From the NCBI GenBank assembly GCA_038213805.1, contig JBBQSO010000054.1:1-35950 (forward strand): a DNA stretch of 35,950 nt, given 5' to 3'. A model generated the notes under the pieces. The model saw nothing but the letters and a program-made list of their open reading frames with translations. It had not been told where the DNA came from and ran no database searches. Positions 1 to 19,720 of this stretch are shown here, one piece after another (positions within the stretch are counted from its first letter, which is position 1; each line of letters begins with the position of its first letter). Both the position numbers and the translations under genes were made by a program. The DNA comes from Planctomycetota bacterium. GTDB taxonomy: Bacteria; Planctomycetota; UBA11346.

Positions 1-1135
1 ATCCACCATGGTGTTCATGGTGTTCTTCAGGTCGAGCATCTCACCCTTGACGTCCACCGTAATCTTCTTCGACAGGTTTCCGCTGGCAACGGCCGTGGTC
101 ACTTCGGCGACGTTGCGCACCTGCGCCGTGAGGTTGCCGGCCATGTAATTGACCGAGTCGGTCAGGTCCTTCCACGTCCCCGCCACGCCCTTGACGTCGG
201 CCTGGCCGCCGAGGCGGCCCTCGGTGCCGACCTCGCGGGCGACGCGGGTGACTTCGCCAGCAAAGCTGTTGAGCTGGTCGACCATCGTGTTGATGGTGTT
301 TTTCAGCTCAAGGATTTCGCCCTTGGCCTCGGCGGTGATTTTCTTGGACAGGTCGCCGCGCGCGACGGCCGTTGTGACATCGGCGATATTGCGCACCTGG
401 GCCGTGAGGTGGGCGGCCATCGAGTTGACGTTGTCGGTCAGGTCTTTCCAGACGCCCGACACGCCGCGCACGTCCGCCTGGCCGCCGAGCTTGCCTTCCG
501 TTCCGACCTCGCGCGCCACGCGAGTGACTTCAGACGCGAACGACGACAGCTGGTCGACCATGGTGTTGACGGTGTTCTTCAGCTCGAGAATCTCGCCCTG
601 CACGTCGACGGTGATCTTCTTGCCGAGGTCGCCATTGGCGACCGCCTTGGTCACGTCGGCGATATTGCGCACCTGGCTGGTCAGGTTGCCGGCCATCGAA
701 TTGACGTTGTCGGTGAGATCCTTCCACGTGCCGGCCACGCCCTTCACCTCGGCTTGGCCGCCGAGCTTGCCTTCGGTGCCGACCTCGCGTGCCACGCGCG
801 TGACTTCGGAAGCGAACGACGACAGCTGGTCGACCATGGTATTGACGGTGTTCTTCAGCTCGAGGATCTCGCCCTTCACGTCGACGGTGATCTTCTTGGT
901 CAGGTCACCATTGGCGACCGCGGTGGTCACGGTGGCGATGTTGCGCACCTGGCTGGTCAGGTTCGAGGCCATCAGATTGACGTTGTCGGTGAGATCCTTC
1001 CAGGTGCCGGCCACGCCCTTGACGCGCGCCTGGCCGCCCAGCTTGCCTTCGGTGCCGACCTCGCGGGCTACGCGCGTCACTTCCGACGCGAACGACGACA
1101 ACTGGTCGACCATGGTGTTCACGGTCAGCGCGGTG
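1..1135 (-). repeat. 276-nt tandem HAMP-unit repeats
   Basis: The segment ggtcgaccatggtgtt...ggtgttcttcagctc recurs with variation at about 1, 276, 552, 828 and 1104 (period 276 nt = 92 aa). Confidence 0.85.
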
Positions 1136-1572
1136 CGGCGGAACTCGCCCTGCAGGGCGCGGCCCTCGATTTCCAACGCCATCGACTGCGAGAGGTCGCC
1201 CTTGGCCACGGCGCCGATCACGCGCGCGGTCTCGGAGGTCGGATGCACCAAGTCGTCGATCAGCGCGTTCACCGAGATGATGGTATCGGCCCAGGCGCCG
1301 GTCGCGGCGCCGACGGTGGCGCGCTGCGAGAGCTTGCCTTCCTTACCGACCACTCTGCTGAGGCGGTCGAGCTCGCGCACGGTCTTGCGGTTGAGGTCGA
1401 CGATCTCATTGAAGGTGTCGGCGATCTTGCCGTCGATCCCGGTCCACTCACTCGGCAGCTCGGCCGAGAAGTCGCCGCGCTTGAGCGAGGTCAGCGCCTT
1501 CAGCAACCAGCGTTTGTCGAGCGCCACCTCCGCCTCTTTGAGGGTGGTGGTCTTCTTGCCGGTGCTCTTCAT
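1..1572 (-). CDS. Poly-HAMP signalling protein, probably a hybrid histidine kinase (Nik1/OsaA-like); 3' part runs off the window
   Basis: Not in the ORF track because no stop lies in the window. ATG at 1572 reads [58 protein letters not shown]..., followed by 92-aa repeats ([52 protein letters not shown]). The kinase domain is not visible. Confidence 0.9.
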
Positions 1573-1768
1573 GGCTGATCCATCGGGCAGGCGCGTCGAT
1601 CGCGCGGGTCCGCGGTCGGGCGGCGGTCGGCCGTTGCGCTCGCAGCGCTGGTGCCATCCGCCGAAGGGGTCGTACCCCTAGAACCGCCCCGTCAGCCTAG
1701 TGAACCACGTGAGCGGAGTCGAGAGCCACCTGTGTCCTGCAAAATGCAATGTGACCGACGCTCGTGCC

Positions 1769-1777
1769 TGGTATAAC
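1769..1777 (+). promoter_or_regulatory. Candidate extended -10 promoter (TGgTATAAC) for the nucleotidyltransferase pair
   Basis: TG-n-TATAAC at 1769-1777; a second GGTATAAC lies at 1927-1934, just upstream of the ATG at 1958. No convincing -35. Confidence 0.3.
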
Positions 1778-1957
1778 GAGCCATGCTGGCCAGGAGTGGT
1801 GTAACCAAGCAGCCTACGCCGCAATCTCTTCACCCCCTTTTATCAATCCCGGCAGTCATGGCGCCTAGCTCAGGCGCAGATAGGCCATACGGTCGCGATG
1901 GATCACATTCCGCCTCCATCGTGCGGGGTATAACCGCGCCTCCGCCCGCGAAACCAC

Positions 1958-2875
1958 ATGACCCCGCCCATCCTCCCCATCGGCACCCAGGTTGTGACCC
2001 GTGCGGACCTGGCAGCCACACCCGAGCGCCTGGCGGTGCCGGCCGGCACGGTTGGCGTCATTGTGCGCTCTCCGGTTGACGGCTCGCACGCCTACCGGGT
2101 GCGCTTCCCCGATGGCTTCGAGGCCTCCTACCTGCGCGACGAGCTGGTGCTGCTCGGCACCTGGCTCGCCCAGGGGTTGACCGCATCCGCGGTGCTCGCC
2201 GATCACGACCTGACCCGTCACATCATCTACCGCTGCGTCATGGGCTCACGCGCCTTCGGTCTGGACGATGATGCGTCGGACACCGATCGGCGCGGCTGCT
2301 ATCTGCCGCCGGCCGAGCTGCACTGGTCACTCTACGGCGTGCCCGAGCAGATCGAGGACAACGGCAACGAAGAGGTCTATTGGGAGCTGCAGAAATTCGT
2401 CTCGCTCGCACTCAAGGCCAACCCGAACATCCTCGAGTGCCTGTGGTCGCCGCTGGTCGAGCACTGCGCGCCCATCGCCACGGAGCTGCTCGCGCTGCGC
2501 GGCAGCTTCCTCTCGCGCCTGGTCTACCAGACCTACAACGGCTACGTGGCCTCGCAGTTCCGCAAGCTCGAGGCCGATCAGCGCAATCATGGCCAGGTCA
2601 AACCCAAGCATGCGATGCACCTGATCAGGCTGCTGCTCTCCGGAATCGGCGTGCTTGAGACCGGCGAACTCACCGTCCGCGTCACCGCGCACCGCGAACG
2701 CTTGCTGGCGATCAAGCACGGCACCGTGCCCTGGGTCGAGGTCGATAGCTGGCGCCTCGAATTGCACCGGCGTTTCGAGGCAGCCAGCACGCGCTCCCCC
2801 CTTCCCGAGCATCCCGACTACCGCGCCATCAACGACTTCCTGATCCGCGCCCGCCGCGCGGCGGTGACCACATGA
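1958..2875 (+). CDS. Pol-beta-superfamily nucleotidyltransferase, RlaP/YcgL-like, with an N-terminal SH3/KOW-like domain
   Basis: GSRAFGLDDDASDTDRRG (GS..DxD motif), KANPNILECLWSP, KHAMHLIRLL, LP..PDY..INDFL. The N-terminal ~70 aa is beta-rich (PIGTQVV...GTVGVIV...YRVRFPDG). Confidence 0.88.
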   Translation: MTPPILPIGTQVVTRADLAATPERLAVPAGTVGVIVRSPVDGSHAYRVRFPDGFEASYLRDELVLLGTWLAQGLTASAVLADHDLTRHIIYRCVMGSRAFGLDDDASDTDRRGCYLPPAELHWSLYGVPEQIEDNGNEEVYWELQKFVSLALKANPNILECLWSPLVEHCAPIATELLALRGSFLSRLVYQTYNGYVASQFRKLEADQRNHGQVKPKHAMHLIRLLLSGIGVLETGELTVRVTAHRERLLAIKHGTVPWVEVDSWRLELHRRFEAASTRSPLPEHPDYRAINDFLIRARRAAVTT

Positions 2876-3663
2876 CGACCTATGATACGAACTTCGATCC
2901 CGCCACCCTCGACCCGCGCATCCATCAGGAGCTCGATCGCCAGCCGCAGCGTCTGGTGTTCGTCACCATCAGCGGCGCTCACCTCTACGGCTTCCCGTCG
3001 CCCGATTCCGACTTCGACCTGCGCGGCGCCCACCTGCTGCCTGCCGAGCGCGTGCTCGGAATGGATGTCCGCGACGAAACCCTTGAGGTCTCCGCCGACC
3101 GCGATGGCCTGGAGGTGGACCTGGTCACCCATGACCTGCGAAAATTCGTGGCGATGATGTTGAAGCGCAATGGCTACGTGCTGGAGCAGCTCCACTCGCC
3201 GCTGATCATCCGCACTTCGCCGCTGCACAATGAGCTGAAGCGCCTGGCCCACGGCTGCGTCACCCGCCACCATGTCCACCACTACCAGGGCTTCGCCCAC
3301 ACCCAATGGGACCTGTTCCGCAAGGAGCGCCCGCGTCGCGTGAAGCCACTGCTGTATGCCTACCGCGTGCTGCTCACCGGCATCCACCTGATGCGCACCG
3401 GCCGCATCGAGTCGCATTTGCCCACTCTCGACCAGGACCACCACCTGCCCTACCTGCCAGGACTGATCCACCGCAAGACCTCGACCAAGGAGAAGGCGCT
3501 CATCGAAGACGCCGACCTCGAACTGCACGAACGCGAATTTCTCCGCCTTGCCGCCTTGTTGGAGCGCGCCGCGGAGACCTCGACCCTGCCGGAGATGCCG
3601 AGCACGCACCGCGAATTGGAACAGGCTGTAATCGAAGCCCGCCTGGGACACCTGCGCGCATGA
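2872..3663 (+). CDS. Second RlaP/YcgL-like nucleotidyltransferase
   Basis: TISGAHLYGFPSPDSDFDLRG, HDLRKF..MMLKRNGYVLEQLHSPL, VKPLLYAYRVLLTGIHLM. ATGA overlap with the upstream gene. Confidence 0.88.
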   Translation: MTTYDTNFDPATLDPRIHQELDRQPQRLVFVTISGAHLYGFPSPDSDFDLRGAHLLPAERVLGMDVRDETLEVSADRDGLEVDLVTHDLRKFVAMMLKRNGYVLEQLHSPLIIRTSPLHNELKRLAHGCVTRHHVHHYQGFAHTQWDLFRKERPRRVKPLLYAYRVLLTGIHLMRTGRIESHLPTLDQDHHLPYLPGLIHRKTSTKEKALIEDADLELHEREFLRLAALLERAAETSTLPEMPSTHRELEQAVIEARLGHLRA

Positions 3664-3930
3664 GCCCACGGCACTGCTGCCGGTGCTGCGGGGCACGGGC
3701 GTGCACCACTTCAAAGACCCGGATGGATCGGCCGGATCGGGGCTAACCGCACAAGCCACCGCTGCGTCCTGCACAGCGGCATGCCATGGGTCAGCCCGTG
3801 TATCCTCCTCGGCTTGCGGCGGTATCCGCGGCTCCTCGCCATGGTCACCCGCTCCAGCCGATGCATCCGGGTCCCTGACCTCCGCCGTTGCTGTGATCGT
3901 TGCGTCAGCTCTGCTCCGTCCGCTGGCCCA

Positions 3931-4797
3931 TTACGCGCACCTGACTGCGCTGAGCAGCGCATCGACCAGGCTTGGCGCGACACCCGAGGCTTGCGGGCAG
4001 CCGCGCTGGGGAGTCGTTGCCACCGGAATGGCGCCATGCCCAAGCAGGTCCCGTACCGCCCACGGATCGCAGCCCCGTTCGAGCAGATGGGCGGCGCAGC
4101 ATTCGCGCAGGGTCTGGCTGCAGACCGGCGCGCGGATGCCGGCTGCGCGGAAAGCCAGGCGATGGATACCCTGGACCAGCTGCGGATCGAGATGCGGACG
4201 GGCTGGGCGGACCCGGCCGGGGTCGGCGGACTCCTCTGCGCCAGTGAACACATGGTGCCAGGGCCATGAGCCCGCTGCTGCCGCCGGCTTGCGTGGCGCG
4301 GCCGCGGGCGTGGCGCTCACTGGCCCAGCCTCACGCCGCCCGACAAGATGCTGGCGCAGTCGAACCGCGAGCAGTTCACGCAGTGGCGCTACGACTCCGA
4401 CCGGCAAAGGGACAACGCGGGCGGGACCGGTGGGAGCACGCACCACGAGCAGGCGCCTTTCCAGATCGAGGTCTGCTACGCGCAGGCGAACGGCCTCGAT
4501 CAGATGCAGGCCGCAACCGTACTGGAGCAGGGCGATCAGGCGCGGCAGACCAGCGAGGTGAGCGAAGAATGCTGCCACCTGCGCCCTCGAAAGCGCCGCG
4601 TCCAGGCCCGCGATCCGCTGTACGCCGTCAGCCAGTCCAGTCGGCGCGGTTCCAACTGCGATCACACGCGCTTGGCGAGGCCGACGGGTCCTGGGCCGCG
4701 CGGAGGCGATTGCCGCTGATGGCGGAAAGGCCAAGGCGCCCCCGGTTGGGACGATCTCGGCGTGGGATGATGCTGGGGAATGGAGCGCAGCGCGCAT
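3931..4797 (-). CDS. Integron integrase (IntI)-like tyrosine recombinase homolog, predicted catalytically inactive, N-terminal domain missing
   Basis: Collinear with the IntI C-terminal domain: LLQYGCGLHLIEAVRLRVADLD, IntI-specific insert ending SWPWHHVF..S.DP, AGIRAPVCSQTLRECCAAHLLERG.D..VRDLLGH..., S.VDAL. RBS GAGGT lies 5 nt before the ATG at 4797. No stop or frameshift. Confidence 0.8.
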   Translation of the reverse strand: MRAALHSPASSHAEIVPTGGALAFPPSAAIASARPRTRRPRQARVIAVGTAPTGLADGVQRIAGLDAALSRAQVAAFFAHLAGLPRLIALLQYGCGLHLIEAVRLRVADLDLERRLLVVRAPTGPARVVPLPVGVVAPLRELLAVRLRQHLVGRREAGPVSATPAAAPRKPAAAAGSWPWHHVFTGAEESADPGRVRPARPHLDPQLVQGIHRLAFRAAGIRAPVCSQTLRECCAAHLLERGCDPWAVRDLLGHGAIPVATTPQRGCPQASGVAPSLVDALLSAVRCA

Positions 4798-4932
4798 GAG
4801 ATACCTCGGGGATTTATAGGGTTTTTGATGGGTCAATAAGGGCCCACCATGGCACCGCCACCGCCGCTGCAAGGTTGGCAGGTACATGGCCCACCGTCTG
4901 CTGCTCTGCCCTGATCCGCCGTCTGGCCCGAT

Positions 4933-7900
4933 TCAGGGAGCGAGCTGGAAGATGCTGTTGTGGATGCTGCCGCTGACCGCCTGTCCATCCGCGGCCTGGA
5001 GATCGTAATGGATCTCCATGCCCCACGTCGGCTGCAGGTCCGGCACCTCGATACCCACGGTGCAACCGTCTTCGGAAAGCGTCACCGCGGTGATCGCCAA
5101 GGCGTGCTCATTGAGGTGCTTGGAACCATATTCCGCTGAACGCTTCAGGCCCCAGACGGTGAGCCCATAGGAGCTGGCCTGCAACGCCCGTGCGCGGTCG
5201 AGCGGACGGCTGAAGCCGAGTTCCAGGCGGTGTACGTGCGCATGCAGCGCTACCGGCACGTTCAGCTCTCCAGACGTCCTCCTGATCCTGGAGAAGCACC
5301 CCTCCTCATGCTGGTTGGTCGCCCAGCCGACCATGCCGCACAAGTAAAGATCGTTGCTTGTTGGATGGAAACGGCCGCGCATCAGACCGCTGGGCAGGGC
5401 GGGAAGGGGCAGCATGTAGAGGCCACCCTGGGTCTGGCCGGAAATGGTCTCGGTGAGCACACCGTAGAGCCGGCCGGTGCCATAGGACATGTTCAGCAGG
5501 TTGCCGCCCAGCGGGCCCCATGTGCCAGGCGGCACCCTCACCGGTTCGGCGGGAGAGCGGTCCATGGCATTCGTGATCCACACCACCGGCTGATCCATCG
5601 ACCCATCTGCGGAATCGCGCGTCGTGGAGCTGCCCATGTTTCCGTAGAAGCCGCCCGGCTTCACCAGATTCAGGCGGTTCTTCGGCGTCCAGTGGCCTTC
5701 CTGGTCGGTGATGAAGAACGTGCCGTCGTCGTTCACGCACACGCCATTGGGCGCACGGAAGCCGTTGGCGATGATATCCGTGCGCGTGCCATCTTTGCTG
5801 ACGCGCAGCAAGGTGCCGTGCTGGGGGACGAGCGCGGGCAGCGCGTGGCGTGCGGCCTTCCCATAGTAGAAATTCCCCTGCGCATCCGTCTGCAGGCCCA
5901 TGGCGAATTCATGGAAGTGTTCGGTGACCTGATGATCGTTGTTGAAATTTTCGATCAGGTCGGCCTCGCCATCGCCGTCGAGATCGCGCAGCACCGCGAT
6001 CTGATCGCGGCAGCAGACGTAGACCGCGCCGTCGACGATCTTCACGCCGAGCGGCTGGAACAACCCGCTGGCGATGCGCCGCCAGCGCAGCACACCATCG
6101 GCCCGGCCAAGGCCGGCGACCGACCACACGTCGCCGTTCCAGGTGCAGACCGCCGCCCTGGTGCCATCGGCGAAGAAGTCGAAACCACCCGGGCGCATCC
6201 ACGATCCGTAGGGATTCGCAGCCGCGACGGGGATGGTCAGCTGGTCCACGGCGAAGGGTCCGCTGCCACCGCCGCGCACCACCTGCGTGGTCACCTCAAC
6301 GGGCCAGCGCGCGCTTCCGCCATGCACCAGCATCTGCAGATCGGGCATGGGTGCGGCGCGCTCCAACGCCCGATCGACGACCGCCTGCCCGGCGTGCGCG
6401 AGCAGGATACGGACCCGCACCGGCTGGGCGGAGGGCAGGAACCGCGCCACCAGCACGCCGTCCTCAACCATGACCCGCACGGTCGGCGGCCCCTGGAGCG
6501 CCCAGGCGAGGTGAGCGGCCTCCGGGGCGAGCCGCAGGGTGAGCGACTTGGCGCTCGGTGACAGGTCGAGCGTCCGGGTGAAGACCGGCGCCGTCAGATC
6601 GGTGGCTGCCAGGCCGGGAGCCTCGAGCACCTCGACGTCACCGACAGTATAGGCCACCACTGCGGAATGGTCGTGCAGGTAGAGACCCCGGTAATGCACC
6701 CAGGCACGCGGCAGCGGGCCATACGGTCGGCCGTCCGTGCCACGCAGCCGGGTGTCATCCCAGCCGCCGTGCTGAGGCTCCGCCCAGCCGGGACCTTGCG
6801 GATTCACCCAGGCCCGCTCACCGACGATGCTGGGGCAGGTGCCATGCGAACCGTCGAAGGCCACGCCCTTCCAATCGATGAAGCCCTGCCCCGAATAGGC
6901 GGCGGCCACCCGCATGGTGTCGTGGTCGTAGACCATCCAGGCGTGGCCCGCGGCCACCCCTCCCGGTCCGGGATCGAGCCGGATGGCGATGCCCTTGTAA
7001 GCGAAGTTGCCCGGCGCCACCTGATAGGTCCAGAACAGCGCCGGTCCGAAATCCATGGTCTGGTACGGCGGCGGGCCCTTCACGGGCGCCGACTCGGGAG
7101 CCGCGCCCAGGATCGTCCTGGGCAGCGATGCGAGATAGCGGGCATCAACCACCGTGTATTGGCTCGGATTGGCGCTCTTGAAGAACTCCTCGCGCAGATA
7201 GTTGATCACATCGTATTTCTGTCGGGAGTCGTACTGCGGCAGCGCGATCATCTGGCCGAACCCGCGTTCGAGGGTGGCGAACAGATGATAGGGATCCGCG
7301 CCATTCTTCATCGGCTCCTTGGCGAAATGTCGCGAGGTCGGCAGCGAGCCCTCCTTGTCCGCAGTCCCATGGCAGGTGATGCAGAAGGTCTGGTAGATCA
7401 CCCGGCCGCGTTCGTGGCTCGCTTGATCCCAGGCTGCTATCAGCGCGACGTGGTCGGTCCGCTCAAGCGGCTGCAGCCAGCACGAGCGGATCGTTCCACC
7501 AAGCGGCAGATCGATGGCGATGGTGATGGGGACCGCGGCGGCAGGCGGAGCCGCAAGCAGCGGCGCGGTCGCGGAAGACGGCGTGCCTGCGACCGTCCGG
7601 GCCGGCACCGTAACAACGACGGGATCGGCGCGCCCGACGCGCTGCACGGTGATGCTCGCCGAACCAACGCCGAGGCGCTGGCAGAGGACATCGACCTCGA
7701 TGTCGGCAGCCTGGTCATCCAGAACGAGCGGAATGCGATAGCCGGCGCCAAGGACGATGGCGGCCGCGGTCGAGGCGGCCGGCAGGTGCGCCACCAGATG
7801 CAGACGCATATCCGCGTACGACCCAGGTAGGACCGCGGCCGGCGCACCAGGCTGCACCAGCACCACCTCGCCCTGATGCGACCAGCCCGGTCCGCCCAAA

Positions 7901-8004
7901 GCCGGCGTGCACGAGACCGCGGCGGGCGGCAACGGCGTCGCCGGCTCGACGGCGCCCAGCGCGAAGCATGAAATCACGAAAACCAGCGCCAAGAATCGCT
8001 TCAT
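4933..8004 (-). CDS. Secreted PVC-type cytochrome c / DUF6797-like / GSDH-like beta-propeller protein
   Basis: Signal peptide MKRFLALVFVISCFALGA; heme motif CITCH; AYKGIAIRLD.G.GG...YDHDTMR (DUF6797-like); propeller motifs SGLFQPLG, HFHEFAMGLQ, NGFRAPNG, DQEGHWTP. Confidence 0.8.
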   Translation of the reverse strand: MKRFLALVFVISCFALGAVEPATPLPPAAVSCTPALGGPGWSHQGEVVLVQPGAPAAVLPGSYADMRLHLVAHLPAASTAAAIVLGAGYRIPLVLDDQAADIEVDVLCQRLGVGSASITVQRVGRADPVVVTVPARTVAGTPSSATAPLLAAPPAAAVPITIAIDLPLGGTIRSCWLQPLERTDHVALIAAWDQASHERGRVIYQTFCITCHGTADKEGSLPTSRHFAKEPMKNGADPYHLFATLERGFGQMIALPQYDSRQKYDVINYLREEFFKSANPSQYTVVDARYLASLPRTILGAAPESAPVKGPPPYQTMDFGPALFWTYQVAPGNFAYKGIAIRLDPGPGGVAAGHAWMVYDHDTMRVAAAYSGQGFIDWKGVAFDGSHGTCPSIVGERAWVNPQGPGWAEPQHGGWDDTRLRGTDGRPYGPLPRAWVHYRGLYLHDHSAVVAYTVGDVEVLEAPGLAATDLTAPVFTRTLDLSPSAKSLTLRLAPEAAHLAWALQGPPTVRVMVEDGVLVARFLPSAQPVRVRILLAHAGQAVVDRALERAAPMPDLQMLVHGGSARWPVEVTTQVVRGGGSGPFAVDQLTIPVAAANPYGSWMRPGGFDFFADGTRAAVCTWNGDVWSVAGLGRADGVLRWRRIASGLFQPLGVKIVDGAVYVCCRDQIAVLRDLDGDGEADLIENFNNDHQVTEHFHEFAMGLQTDAQGNFYYGKAARHALPALVPQHGTLLRVSKDGTRTDIIANGFRAPNGVCVNDDGTFFITDQEGHWTPKNRLNLVKPGGFYGNMGSSTTRDSADGSMDQPVVWITNAMDRSPAEPVRVPPGTWGPLGGNLLNMSYGTGRLYGVLTETISGQTQGGLYMLPLPALPSGLMRGRFHPTSNDLYLCGMVGWATNQHEEGCFSRIRRTSGELNVPVALHAHVHRLELGFSRPLDRARALQASSYGLTVWGLKRSAEYGSKHLNEHALAITAVTLSEDGCTVGIEVPDLQPTWGMEIHYDLQAADGQAVSGSIHNSIFQLAP

Positions 8005-8059
8005 GGTGAATGCCTCTGCTGCGGATGTGGATGTGGATGTATGCCACTGACGGCTGAAG

Positions 8060-8086
8060 CCGGCCCGGAACTGGACTCCGGGCCGG
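8060..8086 (-). terminator. Intergenic stem-loop (10-bp perfect inverted repeat)
   Basis: ccggcccgga-actggac-tccgggccgg, 10 nt after the DUF1592 stop; no U-tract. Confidence 0.45.
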
Positions 8087-8095
8087 TCCGACGCG

Positions 8096-10585
8096 TCACC
8101 TGGTGGTGAAGATGCGGGACGTGCACACCGCCTTCACCAGGTCGCGCAGGCGGTACCCGTTGCCTTTGAGCTGCGCGCAGATGGCGTCGACCTCATCCTC
8201 GTCCATGGCACCAAGCTTCCTGCCGGTACCGTAGACCAACAACTTGCGCACCAGGTTCCCGGCGACCTGGTCCAGCGAGGCCCCGAGTTCATGCTTGAAG
8301 CCCGCGATGTCGGCGAAGGCCTTGCCGTTCGGCAGCACGCCCGAGGCGTCGATGGGGGCGTTCACGTAACTCGTCCGCCAGCGGCCGGACGCATCGAAGT
8401 TCTCCAGCGCGAAACCGATCGGATCGATGCGCCGGTGGCAGCTGGCGCAGCTCGCGTCGCTGCGATGCCGATCCAGGGCGGTGCGGATGGTGGTGGTCCC
8501 GCGCAGATCGGTCTGGAGCGGCTTAACTCCAGGCGGAACCGGTTCTGGCGGCTGCCCCAGAAGGTTGTCCAGGACGAAGATGCCCCTGACCACCGGCGAG
8601 GTGTCGACGCCATTCGCCGATGCCGCCAGGACCGCGGCCATGCCGAGCAACCCGCCGCGCTTCAGGCCGGGGGCGAGCGTCACCGGCCGCCACGCCGCAC
8701 TGTCGACGTCCTGGACCCCATAGAAATCGGCCAGCGAATCGTTCATGATGGTGAAATCGCTGTCGATCAACGCCGCCACCGGCAGGTTGCCGGCCAGCAG
8801 GTGCCGGAAGAACAGCACCGGTTCCTTGACGATCGCGTCCCTGGTCCCGGTGTAGCCGTGCGAAATGCGGTAGAAATCCCCGTACTTCTTCTCATCGGGC
8901 GGCATCTTGTCCATATTGCGCAGGTGCAGCCACTGCGACACGAAGCTGTCGACGAATTCGTCGCAGCCCGGGCCGGCGAGCAGGCGTTCGACCTGGCGGG
9001 CGTATGCCCCGGGCTCAGACAGCGTGTGCGCAGCGGCGAGAGCCGCGAGTTCGGCGTCCGGCATCGAGCTGGTCAGCGCGTACGACAGCCGGCAAGCCAA
9101 CGCATCGTCGTCGAGCCGGCCCGCGTTCTCGCGGATGTAGAGGAATCCGGGCGAGCACAGCATGGCCTTGACCGCGAGCGTACGCCCCTTGCTCTCGGCG
9201 AGGCGGTAGAAGGGCTCAAGCTCCGTCTCCGTAACCGGTCGACGGAAGGCGCGCCGTGCGAAGGCGCCCAGCGCCGCCCGGGTGTCCGGGGCGTCGAGCA
9301 CCTGGACCTGGAACGCCGACGGCCACTCTTTGTAGAATGGGCCGTCGATGGCCATTTTGTGCAGCCTGATCCTGGGCGAGATCGCGGTCCTGAGGAACTC
9401 CTTGCTCTGCGGAGTCTTCGGCTCCGCGTCCTGGTTGCGCTTGCGGATCGCCGCGCGCTCCTCCTGGGTGGCGCCGGGTGGGGTGGGGATCTCCTTCCAG
9501 TCGGTCAGCTCCTGGTAAAGGACCCACAGCGGGCACGCCGGGCCGTTCTCGAAGTACAGCTGCAGGCGCCAGTTCTTCGGCACCCACACCTCGTGCGCAA
9601 TACCGACGATCTGGTTGTCGGGCAGGTCGTGGATGGCCACGGTCTGCTCGATCTCCGGGAAGGTCCGCTCCGGCGACAGCAAGCGGATCGCCAGCTGGTG
9701 CGGACGCTTCGGGCTGTATTCGCGCAGCTTGCTGGTCACGTCGGCGCGGTCGCGGCCCAGGGACTCGACCTTGAAGGTGAGGTGGTACCAGCCCGCCGCG
9801 GTGAATGGCGTCCCGCCGATGATGCGCACGTGGCCGCATTCCTGGGGCGTGGTCCAGTACCCCCGCTCGATGTCGTAGTGGTTGTAGATCTCGTGGCCGA
9901 TCGGGTCGCCATCGATGCCACCCTCGAGGCGGTAGCGGTCGCTCTTATCGATGTACTGGCGGTAGACGCGTTCCGGCTTGGGTCCGCCGCTGCCAGCTTC
10001 ATCGATCATCTGCGATGCAGCGCGCAGGTAGTTCTCCATCAGCGTGTCGCTGACGCGCAGCTCATCGCCGAGCACGTCGAAGCCGGCGCCGCCGCGATCA
10101 TCGGGGAAGCCGCGCGTCGGATCCGCCATGGTCGTTTCGACGCCCATGAGATCGCGCATGGTGTTGCGGTACTGGACGCGGTTGAGGCGCTTGAGCGGCA
10201 CCTCCTCGGCATGCAGCCGCCCCGAGCGCTCGGCCGCGCTGACGCTGCGGGAGATCGCCGCAGCGATCGTCGCGGCCTCGGCCGCCGCAGGGCGCCGGGT
10301 CGCCTCCTCCGGGGGCATTTCGCCCTTCTCGAGCTGCCGGACCACGTGCTTCCAAATGCCATAGCTCCGCTCGTCCACCTCGCCTGCGCGCACCTGATCC
10401 AGGCGCAACTTGCCCTTTTGCTTGTCGGGCCCATGGCACTCGATGCAGTATGCTTTGGCGAAGCCCGCCCAGGCGTCGCCGCCGACCATCATGGGCTCTG
10501 CGGCACCGACCAACGCCCAAACGGCCGAAACTGCCAGCAGCACCAGGGTGGCCAAGCCCCGCTCACCGCGCAGACGCGCGCTCAC
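8096..10585 (-). CDS. Planctomycete cytochrome c / DUF1587-DUF1592-DUF1588-DUF1585 protein
   Basis: CIECH...GEMPP, KRLNRVQYRNTMRDL, LA.RLSY.L.SSMPD.EL, F.SQWL, RGGLLG, TSPVVRG, CASCH.RIDPIGFALENFD. GTGA overlap with DUF1552. Confidence 0.9.
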   Translation of the reverse strand: MSARLRGERGLATLVLLAVSAVWALVGAAEPMMVGGDAWAGFAKAYCIECHGPDKQKGKLRLDQVRAGEVDERSYGIWKHVVRQLEKGEMPPEEATRRPAAAEAATIAAAISRSVSAAERSGRLHAEEVPLKRLNRVQYRNTMRDLMGVETTMADPTRGFPDDRGGAGFDVLGDELRVSDTLMENYLRAASQMIDEAGSGGPKPERVYRQYIDKSDRYRLEGGIDGDPIGHEIYNHYDIERGYWTTPQECGHVRIIGGTPFTAAGWYHLTFKVESLGRDRADVTSKLREYSPKRPHQLAIRLLSPERTFPEIEQTVAIHDLPDNQIVGIAHEVWVPKNWRLQLYFENGPACPLWVLYQELTDWKEIPTPPGATQEERAAIRKRNQDAEPKTPQSKEFLRTAISPRIRLHKMAIDGPFYKEWPSAFQVQVLDAPDTRAALGAFARRAFRRPVTETELEPFYRLAESKGRTLAVKAMLCSPGFLYIRENAGRLDDDALACRLSYALTSSMPDAELAALAAAHTLSEPGAYARQVERLLAGPGCDEFVDSFVSQWLHLRNMDKMPPDEKKYGDFYRISHGYTGTRDAIVKEPVLFFRHLLAGNLPVAALIDSDFTIMNDSLADFYGVQDVDSAAWRPVTLAPGLKRGGLLGMAAVLAASANGVDTSPVVRGIFVLDNLLGQPPEPVPPGVKPLQTDLRGTTTIRTALDRHRSDASCASCHRRIDPIGFALENFDASGRWRTSYVNAPIDASGVLPNGKAFADIAGFKHELGASLDQVAGNLVRKLLVYGTGRKLGAMDEDEVDAICAQLKGNGYRLRDLVKAVCTSRIFTTR

Positions 10586-11844
10586 GCCAAACCCCGCAAA
10601 GTGCCGGTGCTTTTGTTGAAAGCCGTGGTCTCGACCCCAAGCCGCTGGAGCATGCTGAGGTAGAGGTTGCTGAGCGGCTGCTTGGCCTGCACGTCGATCA
10701 CCGTGCCGTGCGCGTAGCCGCCGCCGGCGAGGATGATGGGCAGATTTTGGTTACTGTGGACATTGCCGTCGCTCATCCCTGAGCTGTAGAGCAGTTGCGT
10801 CGTATCGAGCAGACCCAGGGCCGCGATGCGGTCGATGAGCAATGCGAAGCGCGAGAGGTGGAAATCGTCGATCGCTCGCAACTGCCGGACCTTGTCCGGC
10901 AGCTGCCCATGGTGGGTGAGGCTGTGGTAGTTGTCGACGATGCCCGGCAGGTCCCAGTTGGGGTTGGTGAACACGTCCATGGTGACGATGCGCGCGGAGT
11001 CGGTCTGCAGGATGAGCGGGATGAGCTCGATGAAGGCGTCGTAGGTCTTGGTCTGGCTCTCCTTCTTCACCGCCGCGATGCGCTCGCCCAGCAGCGCCGG
11101 TGCGGCCGGCTTGGGGATCGACAGCCAGTCGCGGTAGACCTGCACCTTGCGCTCGGCGTCGCGCACCGAGGTGAAGTAGTCGTCGAGACGGCTGCGATCG
11201 CGCACCGACACGGTCGCGGCCAGATTCCGCGCGCTCTCGTTCACGGTGTCCAGAACGCTGCGGTTGCCGGCCAGTTCGACGCCGCGCACCTCTTTCTCTT
11301 CGGTGGTCTGCTCGGAGAAGAGCAGGTTGAACAGCTCCAGTGGGCTGCCGACGTAGGGGATCTTGGCGCCCGAGCGCGCGAACGAGGTGTGCTGGTCGTT
11401 GTCGGGGTTTCCCCACAGGTTGAGCATCGGGAAGCGCGTCGCGGTGGCGTAGAGTTCGGCCGCGCGCGCGTCGACGGTGATGCCACCGTCGGGATGCGAG
11501 ATGGCCTCGGTACGTTTCATGTCAGAGAGGATGCAGGGCGCCGCGGCGTGCCCGCCCGTGACCGACAGCCCGAGATTTTTGAACACCGTCATGACCTGGC
11601 GGTGCCGTTCGAGCGGCCGCAGGCCATCGGTCATAACGTATCCCGCCCCGGCGTCCTGTGGGTGGAAGGACGGCGCGTACATGCCGAACTTGTGGGTGAG
11701 GTTGATCATGCAGCGCGGCTTGGCTGGGACGGCCTGGCCAGGTTCCGCCGCGCGCAGCGATTCCAGCCACGGCAGGGCGATCGCCACGCCGGCGCCCTTG
11801 AGGAAGGTGCGGCGATCGATGAAGCGCGGGAGCGTGGTACGCAT
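10582..11844 (-). CDS. DUF1552 (HXXSHH-type) Tat-exported protein
   Basis: Tat motif DRRTFLKG; ALPWLES; YHSLTHH; SGMSDGNVHSNQNLPIILAGG; PLSNLYLSML. Confidence 0.9.
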   Translation of the reverse strand: MRTTLPRFIDRRTFLKGAGVAIALPWLESLRAAEPGQAVPAKPRCMINLTHKFGMYAPSFHPQDAGAGYVMTDGLRPLERHRQVMTVFKNLGLSVTGGHAAAPCILSDMKRTEAISHPDGGITVDARAAELYATATRFPMLNLWGNPDNDQHTSFARSGAKIPYVGSPLELFNLLFSEQTTEEKEVRGVELAGNRSVLDTVNESARNLAATVSVRDRSRLDDYFTSVRDAERKVQVYRDWLSIPKPAAPALLGERIAAVKKESQTKTYDAFIELIPLILQTDSARIVTMDVFTNPNWDLPGIVDNYHSLTHHGQLPDKVRQLRAIDDFHLSRFALLIDRIAALGLLDTTQLLYSSGMSDGNVHSNQNLPIILAGGGYAHGTVIDVQAKQPLSNLYLSMLQRLGVETTAFNKSTGTLRGLA

Positions 11845-11880
11845 GGTGGTCCTCTGAAGTATGCGATGACGGACGCCGCC

Positions 11881-13458
11881 TCAGCGGCCGGCGCCAGGAA
11901 TGCCGGCCGAGCCGCTGCGGTACAGGTCGCCCACCTCCGCTGCGGTGAGCGCCCGGGAGAAGAAGACAAACTCATCCATGCGACCGGTCAGGTTGCGGAT
12001 CGGCGAACCGTCGGAGGAGTTCGCCGGGTTCCAGTTGCCGAGTTCGCCATGGCCGATGCGCAGCGCGGTTCCACCCTGCAGGGGGAAGCGCCCGACCGGC
12101 TGCCCATTCACGTACTGGATCAGCTGAAGCCGGACGCCGTCGTAGACCATGGCGACCTGGGTCCAGCGCCGCAGGTGCGCGGCGGAGAAGACGCCTGGCG
12201 AATCGAAGTTGTACTGCGCGACCACCGCGCCCTGCGGCCAACCGACCGCCGTGTGCAGGCTGCCATTGCCGCGGATCTGCCAGTGCAGCGCGCCCGTGGC
12301 GAAGCCGTCGGTCATGAACAGCGAATTGAAGGGGTGGTCGAGGGCATCGACGCGGACCCACGCCACCAGACTCGCCGAATCCACCTCGCCCGGCACGCTC
12401 ACGCGCACGCGGTCGCTCTGGTCGCGGAACTCCAGGGCCTGCTTGCCGCGCCAGCGGCCCTCGCCCGTCGCGCAACCGACGATGGTGGCGTCGCCGGCCT
12501 CACCACCGTGGGCGGCGCGATTGCGCAGGGTGCGGTCGGCGATGGATTCCTTCTCGAAATCGACATGCAGGATCAGCGCCGGATCGGCGTCCAACCTGCT
12601 CGCGGCCTGCCGCCAAGCCTCCATGACCTGATCCTGCGCAACGACGGACTTCCGAGCGAGATCGGCCGCAGAGGGGAAAGCGGAGGGATCCGCCGGGATC
12701 GCATGCGGCGCGCCGTCCCCGACCACCGCCATCGCCTGGTCCGCATGGAGTTCCTGGACCGGCCCCGCGATGGTCTGGAGCGTCACCCGCCCGGTGAAGA
12801 CGTGGACCTCCTCATGCACGCCATCGACCGCGAGTCCGAAAGCCGTGCCCAGGTCGACGACCGTCAGCCGCGGCGTGCGGATCGCGAAGCCGCGCGCCAG
12901 GCGCGGCACCTCGGCGCTCAGGCGCCCGGCGTCCAGGACCGCCGCCTTGCCCGAGAGCAGGTGCACATCGATCGGCCCCGCGCACACCAGGCGCACGCCA
13001 TTGTAGAATTCGACCTGGACGATTCCCGAGCGCAGGTGTAGCCAGCCCGGCTCGAGCGCTTCGCCCTGCGCATGCGCGTCGGCCGGCGCGGCCCATTGCG
13101 CATCCAGCACCCGCGAGAGCACGGCGATGGCGGTGGTCGTAGCCTCGACAGGCGCTGGGTCGACGCCGCCATACCAGGTCCACAGTGCCGCGCTGGCGAA
13201 AAGCGCCACGCAGGCTGCAGCCGCCAGGGCCGCGAAGGACCGACGCCGGGGTGGAAAGGCAAGATGCACCCGGGGCGCGGCTTGCGTCCCGCTGTTCTCG
13301 ACCTCGTGCAGCAGCGCATGCAGGGCCGCCTCGCGCCAATACTGCGTGCGCGCACCCGCGGAACGGCGCAGGGCATCCTCCAGCTCCGCCTGCTCATCAG
13401 GCGTGAGCTGGCCATCGAGATGATGGCCGACCAAGAGGGACAGGCGCAGGTCGCTCAT
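11881..13458 (-). CDS. FecR-like anti-sigma factor with a C-terminal LamG/ConA-like domain
   Basis: Start at MSDLRL (ATGA overlap with the sigma stop). Anti-sigma helix LDGQLTPDEQAELE, a TM segment, FecR motif F.IRTP...VVDLGTAFG...HVF.G.V, LamG motifs (W..VAMVYD, YVNG, IG, G.MDEF..FSRALT..EV). Confidence 0.88.
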   Translation of the reverse strand: MSDLRLSLLVGHHLDGQLTPDEQAELEDALRRSAGARTQYWREAALHALLHEVENSGTQAAPRVHLAFPPRRRSFAALAAAACVALFASAALWTWYGGVDPAPVEATTTAIAVLSRVLDAQWAAPADAHAQGEALEPGWLHLRSGIVQVEFYNGVRLVCAGPIDVHLLSGKAAVLDAGRLSAEVPRLARGFAIRTPRLTVVDLGTAFGLAVDGVHEEVHVFTGRVTLQTIAGPVQELHADQAMAVVGDGAPHAIPADPSAFPSAADLARKSVVAQDQVMEAWRQAASRLDADPALILHVDFEKESIADRTLRNRAAHGGEAGDATIVGCATGEGRWRGKQALEFRDQSDRVRVSVPGEVDSASLVAWVRVDALDHPFNSLFMTDGFATGALHWQIRGNGSLHTAVGWPQGAVVAQYNFDSPGVFSAAHLRRWTQVAMVYDGVRLQLIQYVNGQPVGRFPLQGGTALRIGHGELGNWNPANSSDGSPIRNLTGRMDEFVFFSRALTAAEVGDLYRSGSAGIPGAGR

Positions 13459-14009
13459 GGGCGCTGCCCCCCGGCCTTGCCGCTGCTCTCCATGCAGGTG
13501 CGCAGCGCCGCACGCGCCCGCGACAGGGTAACGTTGATGGCGTTCACCGACTGCGCGCGCAGCCCGGCGATGGCCTCGGGGAGATGTTCGCCGAAATAGC
13601 GCAGGCGCACCAGCTCGCGTGCCGTCGGCGCGAGCTGCTGGAGGCACGTGCGCAGACGGATGACCTGTTCTTCGTGCCGGCCGCCGTCGTCGGCAGGCGG
13701 CGCCGAGGCGGCCAGCGCCTCCAGCACGTCATCCGCCAACCGCTTGGCCGAGCGCTGACGGTCGCGCAGCACGGATAACACCTTGAACTTGGCGATACAC
13801 CGCGACCAGGCCTGGAAATTGGAGCCCAGCGCAAATCCATCAGCTTGACGCGTGATCTCGAGGAAGGTCTCCTGCATGACGTCGTCCGCGGTCGCGAAGT
13901 CGGGCGCCAGGCCCATCACGAAGGCGCGCAGCTGCGGCTGGTGCTGAATGAACAGCCGCTGGACGCTGAGACTGTGGGAATCCGCTGGCGTAGAATCAGG
14001 GTCGGTCAC
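13455..14009 (-). CDS. ECF sigma-70 factor, Rhodopirellula/Verrucomicrobium type
   Basis: ADDVMQETF, F..GSNF.AW, CLQQL...RELVRLRY, L.R.R..LRTC. GTG at 14009 is preceded by AAGGA; the ORF-track start at 14330 is probably too long. Confidence 0.9.
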   Translation of the reverse strand: MTDPDSTPADSHSLSVQRLFIQHQPQLRAFVMGLAPDFATADDVMQETFLEITRQADGFALGSNFQAWSRCIAKFKVLSVLRDRQRSAKRLADDVLEALAASAPPADDGGRHEEQVIRLRTCLQQLAPTARELVRLRYFGEHLPEAIAGLRAQSVNAINVTLSRARAALRTCMESSGKAGGQRP

Positions 14010-14195
14010 GTGCGTCCTTTCCATGCTGGAGATTCCGGCAGCCGGGTTGGACTTAGCAGACTCCGTGATCCATCGTCCAACCCCCTTGGTCCAGGCACTG
14101 ATCCAATGCCACCCAGAGACTTGGGAATGAACTCCATCTGCCTGGTAGCGCTCAACTTGTCGTGAGTATACAATGCGGAGCGCGGTCCTGCCATC

Positions 14196-14221
14196 AAACC
14201 GGACTCGCCGTGGCGATCCGG
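14196..14221 (-). terminator. Putative intrinsic terminator of the ThuA-like gene
   Basis: Minus strand reads ccgga-tcgcc-ac-ggcga-g-tccgg-TTT, 3 nt after the stop at 14225. Confidence 0.5.
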
Positions 14222-14224
14222 AGG

Positions 14225-15271
14225 TCAGTGCCGGACATCCTGCGGCCGGACCCCACGCTTGAAGCCATTCTCGCCCACCGGCGTGACGTCGGCCTTGGCC
14301 GGGATCACCTCCTCGAGCCCGACTCCCCAATAAACGGCGTTGACCAACAGCCGCCGCAGCGCCTCACTGTCCCAATCAGGCCGGCCGGCCATGCCGCCGC
14401 CCATCGTGGTGCTGAACACCCGTGCCGGCCGACCAGAAGGGCCGGTGTAGGTGCGCGTCCAGGCCACCGGCATCATCGGCGCGTTCTTGTCGATGGATCC
14501 ACTCGCGGCCGCGGGAAGGTCGTCCGGCTTCATGCCCGCCAGGACCTGCCCCATGACCAACGGCGTGGTTCCGGGCAGCATGGGCAGGGTCACTTGGTAG
14601 ACATCGGTGGTGACCCAGATCTCGCCATCGGCGATGCCACGCAGCAGCGGACTGGATGCGGCGCCCGGCGCGAACACCCCACGTGTGCTCTGGTGGCCAT
14701 GCTCACCCCAATGTGCGATCCAGGTCTCACCAAGCACCTGCCGTCCCCAGCCCCCCTCCCAGCCGGCCTCATGGCTGTTGAAGCTGCATTTCCGGTACGC
14801 ACTGTCACCTGGACCAAAATTGAACGCGTGGGTGGAGGTGCGCAGGCCGATGATGCCATGGCCAGAGTCGCAGAAATCGATGATGTGCTTCATCTGCACA
14901 TCGGGCAGCGCGCGAAAGCGCGTGAAGATCACCATCAGGTCGGCGTGGTCGAGCGTCTCCAGTCCTGGAATGTTGTCCCGGGTGTCAGTGTCGATGACTC
15001 CGGTGACTTTGTTGATCGCGAACAGCACGGTGCAATCGAAGCCATGCCGCTCGGCGAGGATGCGCGCGAGCAGCGGCATGCCCTCCTCGGAATGATATTC
15101 ATCGTCGCCAACCACGAACACCACCTGCTTGCCTTTGCCCGGCCCGGCCATGCCCGGGAAGGTCGCCCAAGCCTGCCCCTCCCCGGCTACCAAAGGGCAC
15201 AACCAAGCGGTGGCAAAAGTCAGGACTGCAACGGGCAGCCTAGCGATGTGGCTATGGAATTGATTCATCAT
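14225..15271 (-). CDS. ThuA-like (class I glutamine amidotransferase-like) secreted protein
   Basis: GDDEYHSEE, IPGLE.LD.ADL...FTRFR.LP, GLRTSTHAF, LGETW..H.G.H, PVAWTR, RVF.TTMG, RRLLVNAVYW. AGGA RBS before the ATG at 15271. Confidence 0.82.
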   Translation of the reverse strand: MMNQFHSHIARLPVAVLTFATAWLCPLVAGEGQAWATFPGMAGPGKGKQVVFVVGDDEYHSEEGMPLLARILAERHGFDCTVLFAINKVTGVIDTDTRDNIPGLETLDHADLMVIFTRFRALPDVQMKHIIDFCDSGHGIIGLRTSTHAFNFGPGDSAYRKCSFNSHEAGWEGGWGRQVLGETWIAHWGEHGHQSTRGVFAPGAASSPLLRGIADGEIWVTTDVYQVTLPMLPGTTPLVMGQVLAGMKPDDLPAAASGSIDKNAPMMPVAWTRTYTGPSGRPARVFSTTMGGGMAGRPDWDSEALRRLLVNAVYWGVGLEEVIPAKADVTPVGENGFKRGVRPQDVRH

Positions 15272-15469
15272 GTGCGTTCCTGGCAGGATGCCCCTGAGAG
15301 CATCGCGAGGCGGTGGGTGGCGGATGGCAGTGCGGCGTCGTGGCATCGCACGGGCACTTTCACTCGTCTATTCCGCCACGTTGAGGCGCCTTAGCAGCAT
15401 CTCCCCTGATGCCGTTCCGGGCATGACAGCTCCTGACATGCCCGTCCGTGACCGGCTGGTCGAGAACTG

Positions 15470-15503
15470 CGCTCTCCGCACATAATTTGGTATGTGCAGA
15501 GCG
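15470..15503. promoter_or_regulatory. Palindromic operator-like site between divergent genes
   Basis: cgctct-cc-GCACATA-atttgg-TATGTGC-agagcg. Confidence 0.45.
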
Positions 15504-15653
15504 GGCCCCGAAGACCCCGTGCTGTCGAGCATCACGTTCTAGGGGACATGCCTTGACCGCACAGCGCGGCCTGGTCACTTTCACAGCGACCGCAGGATGC
15601 CGGAATCCGGCCGGCACTTCCGCCCACGTGGTCTCCCCCGCGACAACCCGACC

Positions 15654-16913
15654 ATGAGCATCGCCGCCGCCATCGCCGAACTCTTCCGCAACGAACATCG
15701 ACGGGTGCTGGCGACCGTTGTTCGCCTGGTCGGTGATTTCGATCTGGCAGAGGACGCCGTGCAGGAGGCATTTCTCGTCGCGACGCGGCAGTGGCCGACG
15801 GAGGGGATGCCGGGCAATCCATGCGCATGGCTCGTCTCCAGCGCCCGCTTCAAGGCCATCGACGCCATCCGGCGGCGAGCCAGACAGCGCGACCTGGCGC
15901 CTGAGGTCGCCCGCCTTGCCGAAGAACTCGCGCTGGTCAGCTGCGCATTGTCCGAGCGCGAGATCAACGACGATCAGCTCCGCCTGATTCTGGCCTGCTG
16001 CCATCCCGCCCTCGATTTCCAGGTCCAGATCGCCTTGACCCTGCGAGAGGTCTGCGGCCTCACCACGGAGGCGATCGCTGCGGCTTTCCTGGTCGCTCCG
16101 GCCACCATGGCCCAACGCATCGTGCGCGGAAAATCCAAAATCCGCGATGCTGGCATCCCGTTCCAGATCCCCGGTCCTGATGAATTGCCCCAGCGTATCG
16201 ATTCAGTCCTGATGGTCTGCTACCTAGTGTTCAACGAGGGTTACTCGGCGTCATCCGGTGACCATCATACCCGTCCGGATCTCGCGCAGGAAGCAATCCG
16301 TCTCGGGCGGTTGCTGTGCGCACTGCTGCCTGACGCCGAGACCTTCGGGCTGTTGGCTCTGATGCTGCTGCATGATTCCCGACGCGCCGCGCGCACCACC
16401 AGCTCAGGCGATCTGGTGCTGCTTGAGGACCAGGATCGCTCGCTCTGGGACCAGGTAGGCATCCGCGAGGCGCATGCCTGGCTTGCGCAGGCCATGGCAG
16501 CCGAGCCCATCGGTGCGTATACGATTCAGGCCGCCATCGCCGCGGTGCATGCTGAAGCCGCGACTGTCCACGCCACCGATTGGGCACGGATCGCGGAATG
16601 GTACGATGCGCTGGTGCGAGCTTCGCCATCTCCGGTGGTCGAGCTCAACAGGGCCGTGGCGATCGCGATGCGTGATGGTCCGGAAGCCGGCTTGACCCTG
16701 GTCGAATCGCTCCATCCAACGCTGAACGAATTCCACCTGTACCACGCCACGCGCGCGGACCTTTTCAGGCGGTTGGGCCGCCTGTCAGAGGCGTGCGACG
16801 CCTTCCGCCAGGCATTGAATCTTGCCCAGCAAGAGCCTGAGCGGCGGTTCCTGATCCGACGATTGGCAGAACTGGGAGATGACGCCAGCACGCAAGCAAT
16901 CATGGCTAAGTGA
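15654..16913 (+). CDS. ECF42-group sigma factor with a C-terminal TPR/DUF6596 extension
   Basis: FDLAEDAVQEAF, DDQLRLI..CCHPAL, LTLREVCGL, MAQRIVR.K, YLVFNEGY, L.DQDRSLWD, QAAIAAVH, TDW..I..WYD, VVELNRAVA. DGPF genes are adjacent. Confidence 0.92.
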   Translation: MSIAAAIAELFRNEHRRVLATVVRLVGDFDLAEDAVQEAFLVATRQWPTEGMPGNPCAWLVSSARFKAIDAIRRRARQRDLAPEVARLAEELALVSCALSEREINDDQLRLILACCHPALDFQVQIALTLREVCGLTTEAIAAAFLVAPATMAQRIVRGKSKIRDAGIPFQIPGPDELPQRIDSVLMVCYLVFNEGYSASSGDHHTRPDLAQEAIRLGRLLCALLPDAETFGLLALMLLHDSRRAARTTSSGDLVLLEDQDRSLWDQVGIREAHAWLAQAMAAEPIGAYTIQAAIAAVHAEAATVHATDWARIAEWYDALVRASPSPVVELNRAVAIAMRDGPEAGLTLVESLHPTLNEFHLYHATRADLFRRLGRLSEACDAFRQALNLAQQEPERRFLIRRLAELGDDASTQAIMAK

Positions 16914-19642: not shown

Positions 19643-19720
19643 TGGTCGGACCGACAGGATTTGAACCTGCGACTTCTGCGTCCCAAACGCAGCGCTCTAG
19701 CCAAGCTGAGCTACGGTCCG
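19643..19720 (-). tRNA. tRNA-Pro (anticodon TGG), CCA encoded
   Basis: CGGACCG TA GCTC AGCTTGGCTA GAGC G CTGCG TTTGGGA CGCAG AAGTC GCAGG TTCAAAT CCTGT CGGTCCG A CCA folds into a full cloverleaf. Confidence 0.97.

Follow-up and report, generated by a model that had tools for sequence, protein, structure and literature searches.

Integron integrase (intI) genes that have lost their activity are usually dismissed as the debris of dying integrons. About one third of genomic intI genes have been called pseudogenes (PMC2426708), and inactivation of intI is reported to be widespread in Xanthomonas (PMC12444791). TnsF, from a Tn6022-like Tn7 transposon, sets a precedent in bacteria for a tyrosine-recombinase domain that no longer catalyses and has been retained to recognise or bend DNA (PMC10293859). 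The C-terminal helix of IntI1 is described as buried in the adjacent subunit, where it stabilises the synapse (PMC11641012), and peptides that mimic this helix are reported to lower recombination (bioRxiv 10.64898/2026.03.10.710562). Here we describe a gene on the minus strand of a 35,950-nucleotide (nt) stretch of Planctomycetota DNA (GenBank assembly GCA_038213805.1, contig JBBQSO010000054.1, positions 1 to 35,950; hereafter the window), which probably encodes an exapted, non-catalytic IntI derivative, that is, a pseudo-recombinase whose remaining fold is held by purifying selection.

Results

An IntI catalytic domain with a dead active site

The product of the gene, hereafter dead intI (Table 1; residue numbers follow its form of 288 amino acids, aa), was compared to profiles and structures of tyrosine recombinases. 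PF00589 exceeded its gathering score of 27.1 bits (47.4 bits, E 2.4e-12) and was the only Pfam domain found. The best NCBIfam match was the integron integrase model TIGR02249, of whose 315 positions 99-291 were covered (118.6 bits, E 3.3e-34). Neither TIGR02249, whose cut-off is 265, nor NF011946 (90.8 bits, cut-off 435) reached its own threshold. The best relative of solved structure was VchIntIA (PDB 2a3v; E 5.4e-17), and the alignment runs through the insert that is specific to IntI (alpha-I2 / beta-4,5), which aligns to about residues 190-245 of 2a3v with one single-residue gap, aligns also with 34 IntIs, and keeps W, F, DP and RxH conserved. When the family of six proteins described below was aligned to 34 true IntIs with hhalign, family columns 56-284 corresponded to IntI columns 99-328 (E 8.4e-49). 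A chance resemblance to IntI is excluded by these profile and structure-sequence E-values, and the catalytic domain with its specific insert, which had been recognised in an initial annotation of this DNA, is thereby confirmed.

The N-terminal SAM-like core-binding domain of IntI is missing. PF13495 and PF02899 gave no match, and tblastn with five true IntIs found no remnant of the domain in any frame of the window or of a related locus, L001 (JACDGQ010000006.1, from a Planctomycetota metagenome-assembled genome, MAG), which was the single locus returned by a scan of a genome collection. Similarly, no frameshifted remnant of the helix carrying the nucleophilic Tyr was found in other frames. 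In agreement with the initial annotation, the place of the core-binding domain is taken by roughly 55-62 residues that have no IntI homology and are predicted to be disordered, and a conserved basic patch (RPRxRR-like) lies within residues 1-55. At the other end of the protein, V278, D279 and L281 of the C-terminal helix are invariant in all six family members.

Table 1 Features of the dead intI gene and its leader, with positions in the window.
Feature	Position	Strand	Description and basis
Whole gene	3931..4797	(-)	288 codons + stop; N-terminally truncated, catalytically dead IntI derivative; ORF, profile matches, five orthologues
5' leader	4798..4880	(-)	conserved with L001; GAGGT ribosome-binding site at 4807-4803 and AT-rich stretch TTATTGACCCAT..AAAACCCT
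Residues 1-55	4633..4797	(-)	low-complexity, Pro/Ala/Arg-rich, in place of the core-binding domain; no IntI homology by hhalign
Residues 56-258	4024..4632	(-)	interdomain linker and IntI catalytic-domain fold including the IntI-specific insert; hhalign, AlphaFold2, Foldseek
Residues 259-275	3973..4023	(-)	degenerate vestige of the IntI helix bearing the nucleophilic Tyr; alignments
Residues 276-288	3934..3972	(-)	retained C-terminal helix, S/P-V-D-x-L motif corresponding to the IntI GVxSPLDxL tail; in-frame alignment
Arg-I position	4504-4506	(-)	H98; GLR -> GLH
Hairpin Lys position	4429-4431	(-)	T123; no Lys within VVRAPTGPARVV
His-II position	4114-4116	(-)	Q228; HTLRH -> QTLRE
Arg-II position	4105-4107	(-)	R231, kept
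LGH His position	4036-4038	(-)	H254, kept; LLGH intact
Tyr column	4009-4011	(-)	P263; TTMIYTHV -> ATTPQRGC in frame

The alignments confirmed that four of the six catalytic positions (Arg-I, Lys, His-II and Tyr) are changed, as initially annotated, so that the protein retains two of the six residues of the R-K-H-R-H-Y set, Arg-II and the LGH His. Arg-I (replaced by His), Lys and Tyr are lost in all six family members, and Gln occupies the His-II position in four of them; His-II is still present in the orthologues P0005 and P0006, and the LGH His is lost in P0004. By comparison, among 159 collected proteins, all six canonical residues were found in 134 of the 153 homologues outside the family.

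Relatives and phylogeny

The family was assembled by two word-indexed searches of 5.8 billion proteins, which yielded five orthologues (P0002-P0006; 241-286 aa, 59-79% identity), all with open frames and with PF00589 as their only domain; the second search, performed with the family profile, added no members. One orthologue is recorded under the name 'MAG: tyrosine-type recombinase/integrase [Planctomycetes bacterium]'. When 1.84 billion representative proteins were scanned exhaustively with HMMER, the family appeared as one 50% cluster (501 bits), followed by a true IntI at 231 bits and by others at 154 bits or less, among 17,822 matches at E values up to 1e-3. The N-terminal truncation, the GLH motif and the absence of both Lys and Tyr are common to all six members.

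A maximum-likelihood tree was built from 29 of 163 proteins, hand-picked as near-full-length IntI-like rows with fragments and long fusions excluded; the same hand-picking gave the structure alignment (91 of 159 proteins) and the IntI reference alignment (34). The six members grouped together with 100/100 support; the stem of their clade measured 1.7 substitutions per site and its crown branches 0.05-0.33, and this clade sits inside a 99/99 IntI clade together with P0007, P0011 and P0160-P0163. Two of these neighbours, P0160 and P0162, are named in their sources as Planctomycetes/Planctomycetota integron integrases, P0007 and P0011 are unnamed clade-mates, and identity to the nearest true IntIs is 44-49%. 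One dead clade on a long stem indicates that the inactivation is ancestral to the family. We therefore propose a history in which a Planctomycetota IntI ancestor would have lost the core-binding domain and the active-site chemistry once, in the common ancestor of this small clade; fast divergence would have followed the loss, and purifying selection would then have held the catalytic-domain fold as an intact, expressed-looking gene.

Predicted structure

An AlphaFold2 model from the 91-row alignment had a mean predicted local distance difference test score (pLDDT) of 76 and a predicted template modelling score (pTM) of 0.71. Residues 1-62 were predicted to be disordered (pLDDT below 50 at 1-52 and 55-62) and residues 67-255 were mostly modelled with pLDDT above 90. 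Confidence was low across the former Tyr helix (residues 256-275 approximately, pLDDT about 48-65), and a confident C-terminal helix was modelled at residues 277-287 (pLDDT 84-92). The best PDB matches of the model in Foldseek were the chains of 2a3v (E 2.4e-11), followed by XerA, XerD, phage integrases (among them lambda Int) and Cre. The net charge of the domain, +6 to +11 in the family, is within the range of true IntIs (mean +10.9, standard deviation 4.1).

Selection on the reading frame

Dead intI might be an ordinary relic, that is, an intI pseudogene of a lost chromosomal integron that has stayed open by chance, a reading that we consider unlikely. The start of the gene already speaks against it. 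Read from the first ATG, the minus-strand open reading frame (ORF) covers 3931..4887 and encodes 318 aa, but the start at 4797 (MRAALHS..., 288 aa) was preferred because MRAA or MRTA opens four of the five orthologues (P0002, the exception, is annotated from an internal start), because the frame 5' of this Met holds stops in L001, and because the GAGGT motif, 6 nt ahead of the ATG, is conserved in L001. The 288-codon frame with a GAGGT ribosome-binding site, as first annotated, is thus the conserved form of the gene.

L001 is collinear with window positions 2-4880 at 87.7% nt identity, with 83% nt identity over the ORF, and was used to estimate the ratio of nonsynonymous to synonymous substitution rates (dN/dS, omega) by NG86 and LWL85. 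Over the whole gene, 285 codons were aligned without a gap, and the differences fell on the three codon positions as 38/31/75, an excess at third positions that a relic would not be expected to show. By NG86, dN was 0.129, dS 0.370 and omega 0.348; omega was 0.225 for residues 67-258, 0.55 for residues 1-66 and 0.72 for residues 259-285. In 1000 neutral simulations of the pair, in which the observed substitution spectrum was kept, the observed omega was never reached (0/1000), for the whole gene and for the domain alike. Four neighbouring genes had an omega of 0.09-0.20 and a dS of 0.23-0.40, close to that of dead intI (about 0.35-0.37).

The six sequences point in the same direction. Residues 56-258 share 69-81% protein identity between the deepest branches with zero indel columns, while the N-terminal region is 30-55% identical between the deepest branches, with in-frame indels, and the former Tyr helix is 6-53% identical between the deeper branches (75% for the near-identical pair P0005/P0006). 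No frameshifting indel was found in the six sequences down to 59% identity, and all indels are in-frame and outside the domain. In the pair with L001, about 340 nt of true intergenic DNA (positions 1620-1957 approximately) contain five gap columns, compared to none in the 867-nt ORF. The structural core of IntI is kept selectively: of the 48 columns with a conservation of 90% or more across 85 IntIs, 31 still carry the IntI residue in the family, whose conservation tracks that of IntI (Spearman 0.23, p value 5e-4). The short branches within the clade, after a stem of 1.7, also argue against ongoing decay. The marks of a pseudogene are thus absent: the frame is open in six of six sequences, omega in the one DNA pair is 0.35 overall and 0.23 for the domain, and the gene is shared by five relatives.

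The initial annotation had read the gene as intact but catalytically dead, and as retained instead of lost to random decay, and had named as checks orthologues with the same substitutions, a dN/dS below 1 and a structure model. All three agree with it: the five orthologues share GLH, the missing Lys and Tyr and the truncation, omega is 0.35 overall and 0.23 in the domain, and the catalytic fold is modelled with confidence and is closest to 2a3v.

Several observations are nonetheless compatible with a relic. Inactivation of intI is very common (PMC2426708, PMC12444791), the TIGR02249 score lies far under its cut-off, stop codons are rare in DNA of 68% GC, and the sampled genomes are close relatives. 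The whole gene likewise remained free of stops in 217 of the 1000 neutral simulations, so that an open frame alone proves little.

Further points, some of which a relic would also explain, weigh against a maintained function. The omega of the N-terminus was reached by 66 and that of the tail by 330 of the 1000 neutral simulations, so that both regions are indistinguishable from neutral. Selection at the nucleotide level was read from one closely related pair (the window and L001), supplemented by six proteins, and the family is tiny, with six sequences that all come from uncultured organisms. GC content at the three codon positions (GC1/2/3) is 0.81/0.59/0.72; the GC bias of third positions noted initially therefore holds relative to second positions, but GC3 is below GC1 and below that of the neighbouring genes (0.82-0.87). 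This lower GC3 and an omega above that of the neighbours (0.23-0.35 compared to 0.09-0.20) fit weak constraint or low expression. No sigma-70 promoter consensus was found in 3500-5100, where a search for an intrinsic terminator consensus was also negative.

The pattern of losses is less pointed than initially annotated. A loss focused on catalytic residues was not borne out, as the 17 lost columns of the 48 comprise 4 of the 6 catalytic ones and 13 of the 42 others (Fisher p = 0.17), although several of the non-catalytic losses fall in active-site motifs (K125, H232, F234, T236, T259, T260 and H265). Among these, the change of the His after Arg-II to Glu232 places an acidic residue beside Arg-II and, judging from the sequence, may weaken canonical DNA binding. 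VchIntIA is reported to read the extrahelical bases of attC via P232, H240, H241, Q145, W157, K209, Y210 and W219 (PMC3053210). Of these residues, P232 and H241 occur in all six family members, K209 in five and W219 in three, while Q145, W157, Y210 and H240 are replaced. This erosion of four or five of the eight contacts weakens the initial suggestion that the protein binds attC hairpins.

A partner system was also not seen in the DNA at hand: no second intI was found in the 36-kb window or in the 21 kb of L001 (tblastn with five true IntIs), and neither an attC array nor an attI core came to light in them. A crude scan for R''/R' core pairs (RYYYAAC...GTTRRRY) returned four candidates, the only ones in the window, at one locus, 16643-16778, inside the coding sequence of a sigma-70/DUF6596 gene; these are probably due to chance rather than members of an attC array, and at the resolution of this crude scan no canonical integron is therefore evident.

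Taken with these reservations, a non-catalytic IntI derivative under purifying selection remains the reading that we favour over two further alternatives. One is that the protein is still an active recombinase or nuclease with a non-canonical active site, which is very improbable. The protein retains Arg-II, the LGH His and its fold, and some tyrosine recombinases tolerate a residue other than Arg at the Arg-I position. However, the last Tyr lies at or before residue 93, with none in residues 255-288, and the six members have no conserved Ser, Thr or Tyr among their last 34 residues; in addition, the Lys hairpin is gone, an acidic residue stands beside Arg-II, and the core-binding domain that would clamp the DNA is absent. 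The other, equally improbable, is that the constraint stems not from the protein but from a feature overlapping it, be it an antisense gene or an element of DNA or RNA. Long antisense ORFs run along the plus strand (3683-4561 and 4266-4799), and the gene is followed closely by a conserved inverted repeat with structure. However, both ORFs contain stops in L001, the substitutions show the periodicity of the IntI frame, the pattern of conservation is that of the structural core of IntI, and Rfam gave no match in 3500-5000.

Possible modes of action

As no DNA cleavage is possible, the protein most likely acts by binding, and the sequence is compatible with two forms of this. It may serve as a non-catalytic nucleic-acid-binding or architectural protein, in which case contacts would be made by the basic surface of the domain and by the basic, disordered N-terminus. 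Alternatively, it may dock onto a full-length IntI encoded elsewhere in the genome, by means of its C-terminal helix and acceptor surface, and docking would then modulate or poison recombination synapses.

A more specific proposal, to which we give only a slim chance, is that dead intI represents the first natural exaptation of an IntI, either as a trans-acting brake on integron recombination or as a structure-specific binder of folded DNA or RNA, possibly of the conserved, hairpin-forming 168-nt repeat downstream of the gene. In the brake version, a protein consisting of the catalytic domain only would cap IntI subunits through its C-terminal helix and pocket while contributing no nucleophile.

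Genomic surroundings

In a Pfam scan, the window looked unremarkable for a chromosome of Planctomycetota: the neighbours of dead intI are long chromosomal genes, and PSD/PSCyt-domain proteins, DUF1552 and extracytoplasmic function (ECF) sigma factors are encoded. Two RlaP nucleotidyltransferase genes on the plus strand (1958-2875 and 2872-3663) converge with dead intI. The two RlaP (PF10127) genes are tandem, overlapping and paralogous (27-31% mutual identity), and compared to L001 their products are 96% and 92% identical at the aa level, with an omega of 0.09-0.11.

In the intergenic DNA between the convergent genes, 53 nt downstream of the dead intI stop, lies an inverted repeat (3711-3741 / 3848-3878; 168 nt overall) with arms of 31 nt that are 84% complementary and 106 nt apart; a second strong hairpin is enclosed between them. 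The window holds no other copy (two matches, its own arms, compared to 0.01 expected), and the repeat is kept in L001, with two base pairs at the stem's foot changed on both sides and pairing preserved. The repeat has neither attC cores nor bulged bases; possible roles are those of a terminator for both directions, of an element in RNA or of a binding site for a protein.

On its upstream side, dead intI is preceded on the same strand, at a distance of 135 nt, by a gene for a 1023-aa haem/DUF6797 protein. Synteny with L001 stops about 83 nt upstream of the ATG (blastn blocks end at 4880; junction at 4881-4904 in the window and 9848-9917 in L001). This is where attI would sit in a real integron, and inspection by eye showed no GTTRRRY core there. 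In the window, a block of about 10.6 kb (4905-15543) begins at the break, opening with the haem/DUF6797 gene; its first 2.8 kb are found about 7 kb away in L001 and the remainder was not matched in L001. The upstream neighbour in L001 is a divergent sigma-70/DUF6596 gene, and the same gene is located at 15597-16913 in the window.

The window begins with the end of a gene for a giant repeat protein (1-1578, plus strand), whose counterpart in L001 (13056-19559) encodes 2167 aa with tandem repeats of about 276 nt; consistent with this, positions 2-1125 of the window match L001 at many offsets 276 nt apart (blastn). The part of this protein in the window had no Pfam or PADLOC match, and PADLOC returned no defence system for dead intI, either RlaP gene or the repeat protein upstream. 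The sole Rfam match in the window that reached its gathering score was a tRNA gene (RF00005, 65.8 bits) at 19646-19720 on the minus strand.

Comparison with known systems

The dead protein shares with IntI (TIGR02249, 2a3v) the catalytic fold, the insert with its W..VF...DP....RxH pattern, Arg-II, the LGH His and the SP-x-D-x-L helix, and it is phylogenetically nested in the IntI clade, but it differs in lacking the core-binding domain, Arg-I, Lys and Tyr, and no attI or attC array was seen adjacent to it. Because its score stays under the model cut-off, its catalytic set is incomplete and the N-terminal domain is missing, it should not be classified as an IntI. Described intI pseudogenes (intI2, those of Xanthomonas and those of many chromosomal integrons) have likewise lost the ability to recombine and show truncation; theirs are reported to involve stops, frameshifts and deletions that vary between close strains (PMC2426708, PMC12444791), in contrast to the open frame found here across six diverged sequences with an omega of 0.23-0.35. 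No description of a dead IntI clade under selection was found in the titles and abstract openings searched, which came mostly from outside subscription journals.

If dead intI is indeed a catalytically inert IntI under selection, integron integrases could be recruited for non-catalytic roles, as was the case for TnsF, and a natural protein would be at hand to probe the contacts between IntI subunits or the recognition of hairpins without catalysis. It would also bear on whether bacteria restrain integron shuffling by means of decoy subunits, and would affect the counts of 'pseudo-integrases' that integron finders give for environmental phyla.

Two described proteins come close to such a role. 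The engineered IntI1 variant Y312F is reported to be a dead IntI that still assembles on attC, with the C-terminal helix mediating subunit contacts (PMC11641012). Y312F, which keeps the N-terminal domain, and the helix peptides are laboratory constructs, whereas the protein described here is known from its sequence and a model. The closest functional precedent is TnsF of Tn6022-like Tn7 elements, in which an inactivated tyrosine-recombinase domain has been co-opted as a target selector (PMC10293859). TnsF belongs to an unrelated branch of the superfamily, carries zinc fingers and two core-binding-like domains and is encoded by a transposon (PMC10293859), while no Tn7 genes were seen in the Pfam scan of the neighbours of dead intI.

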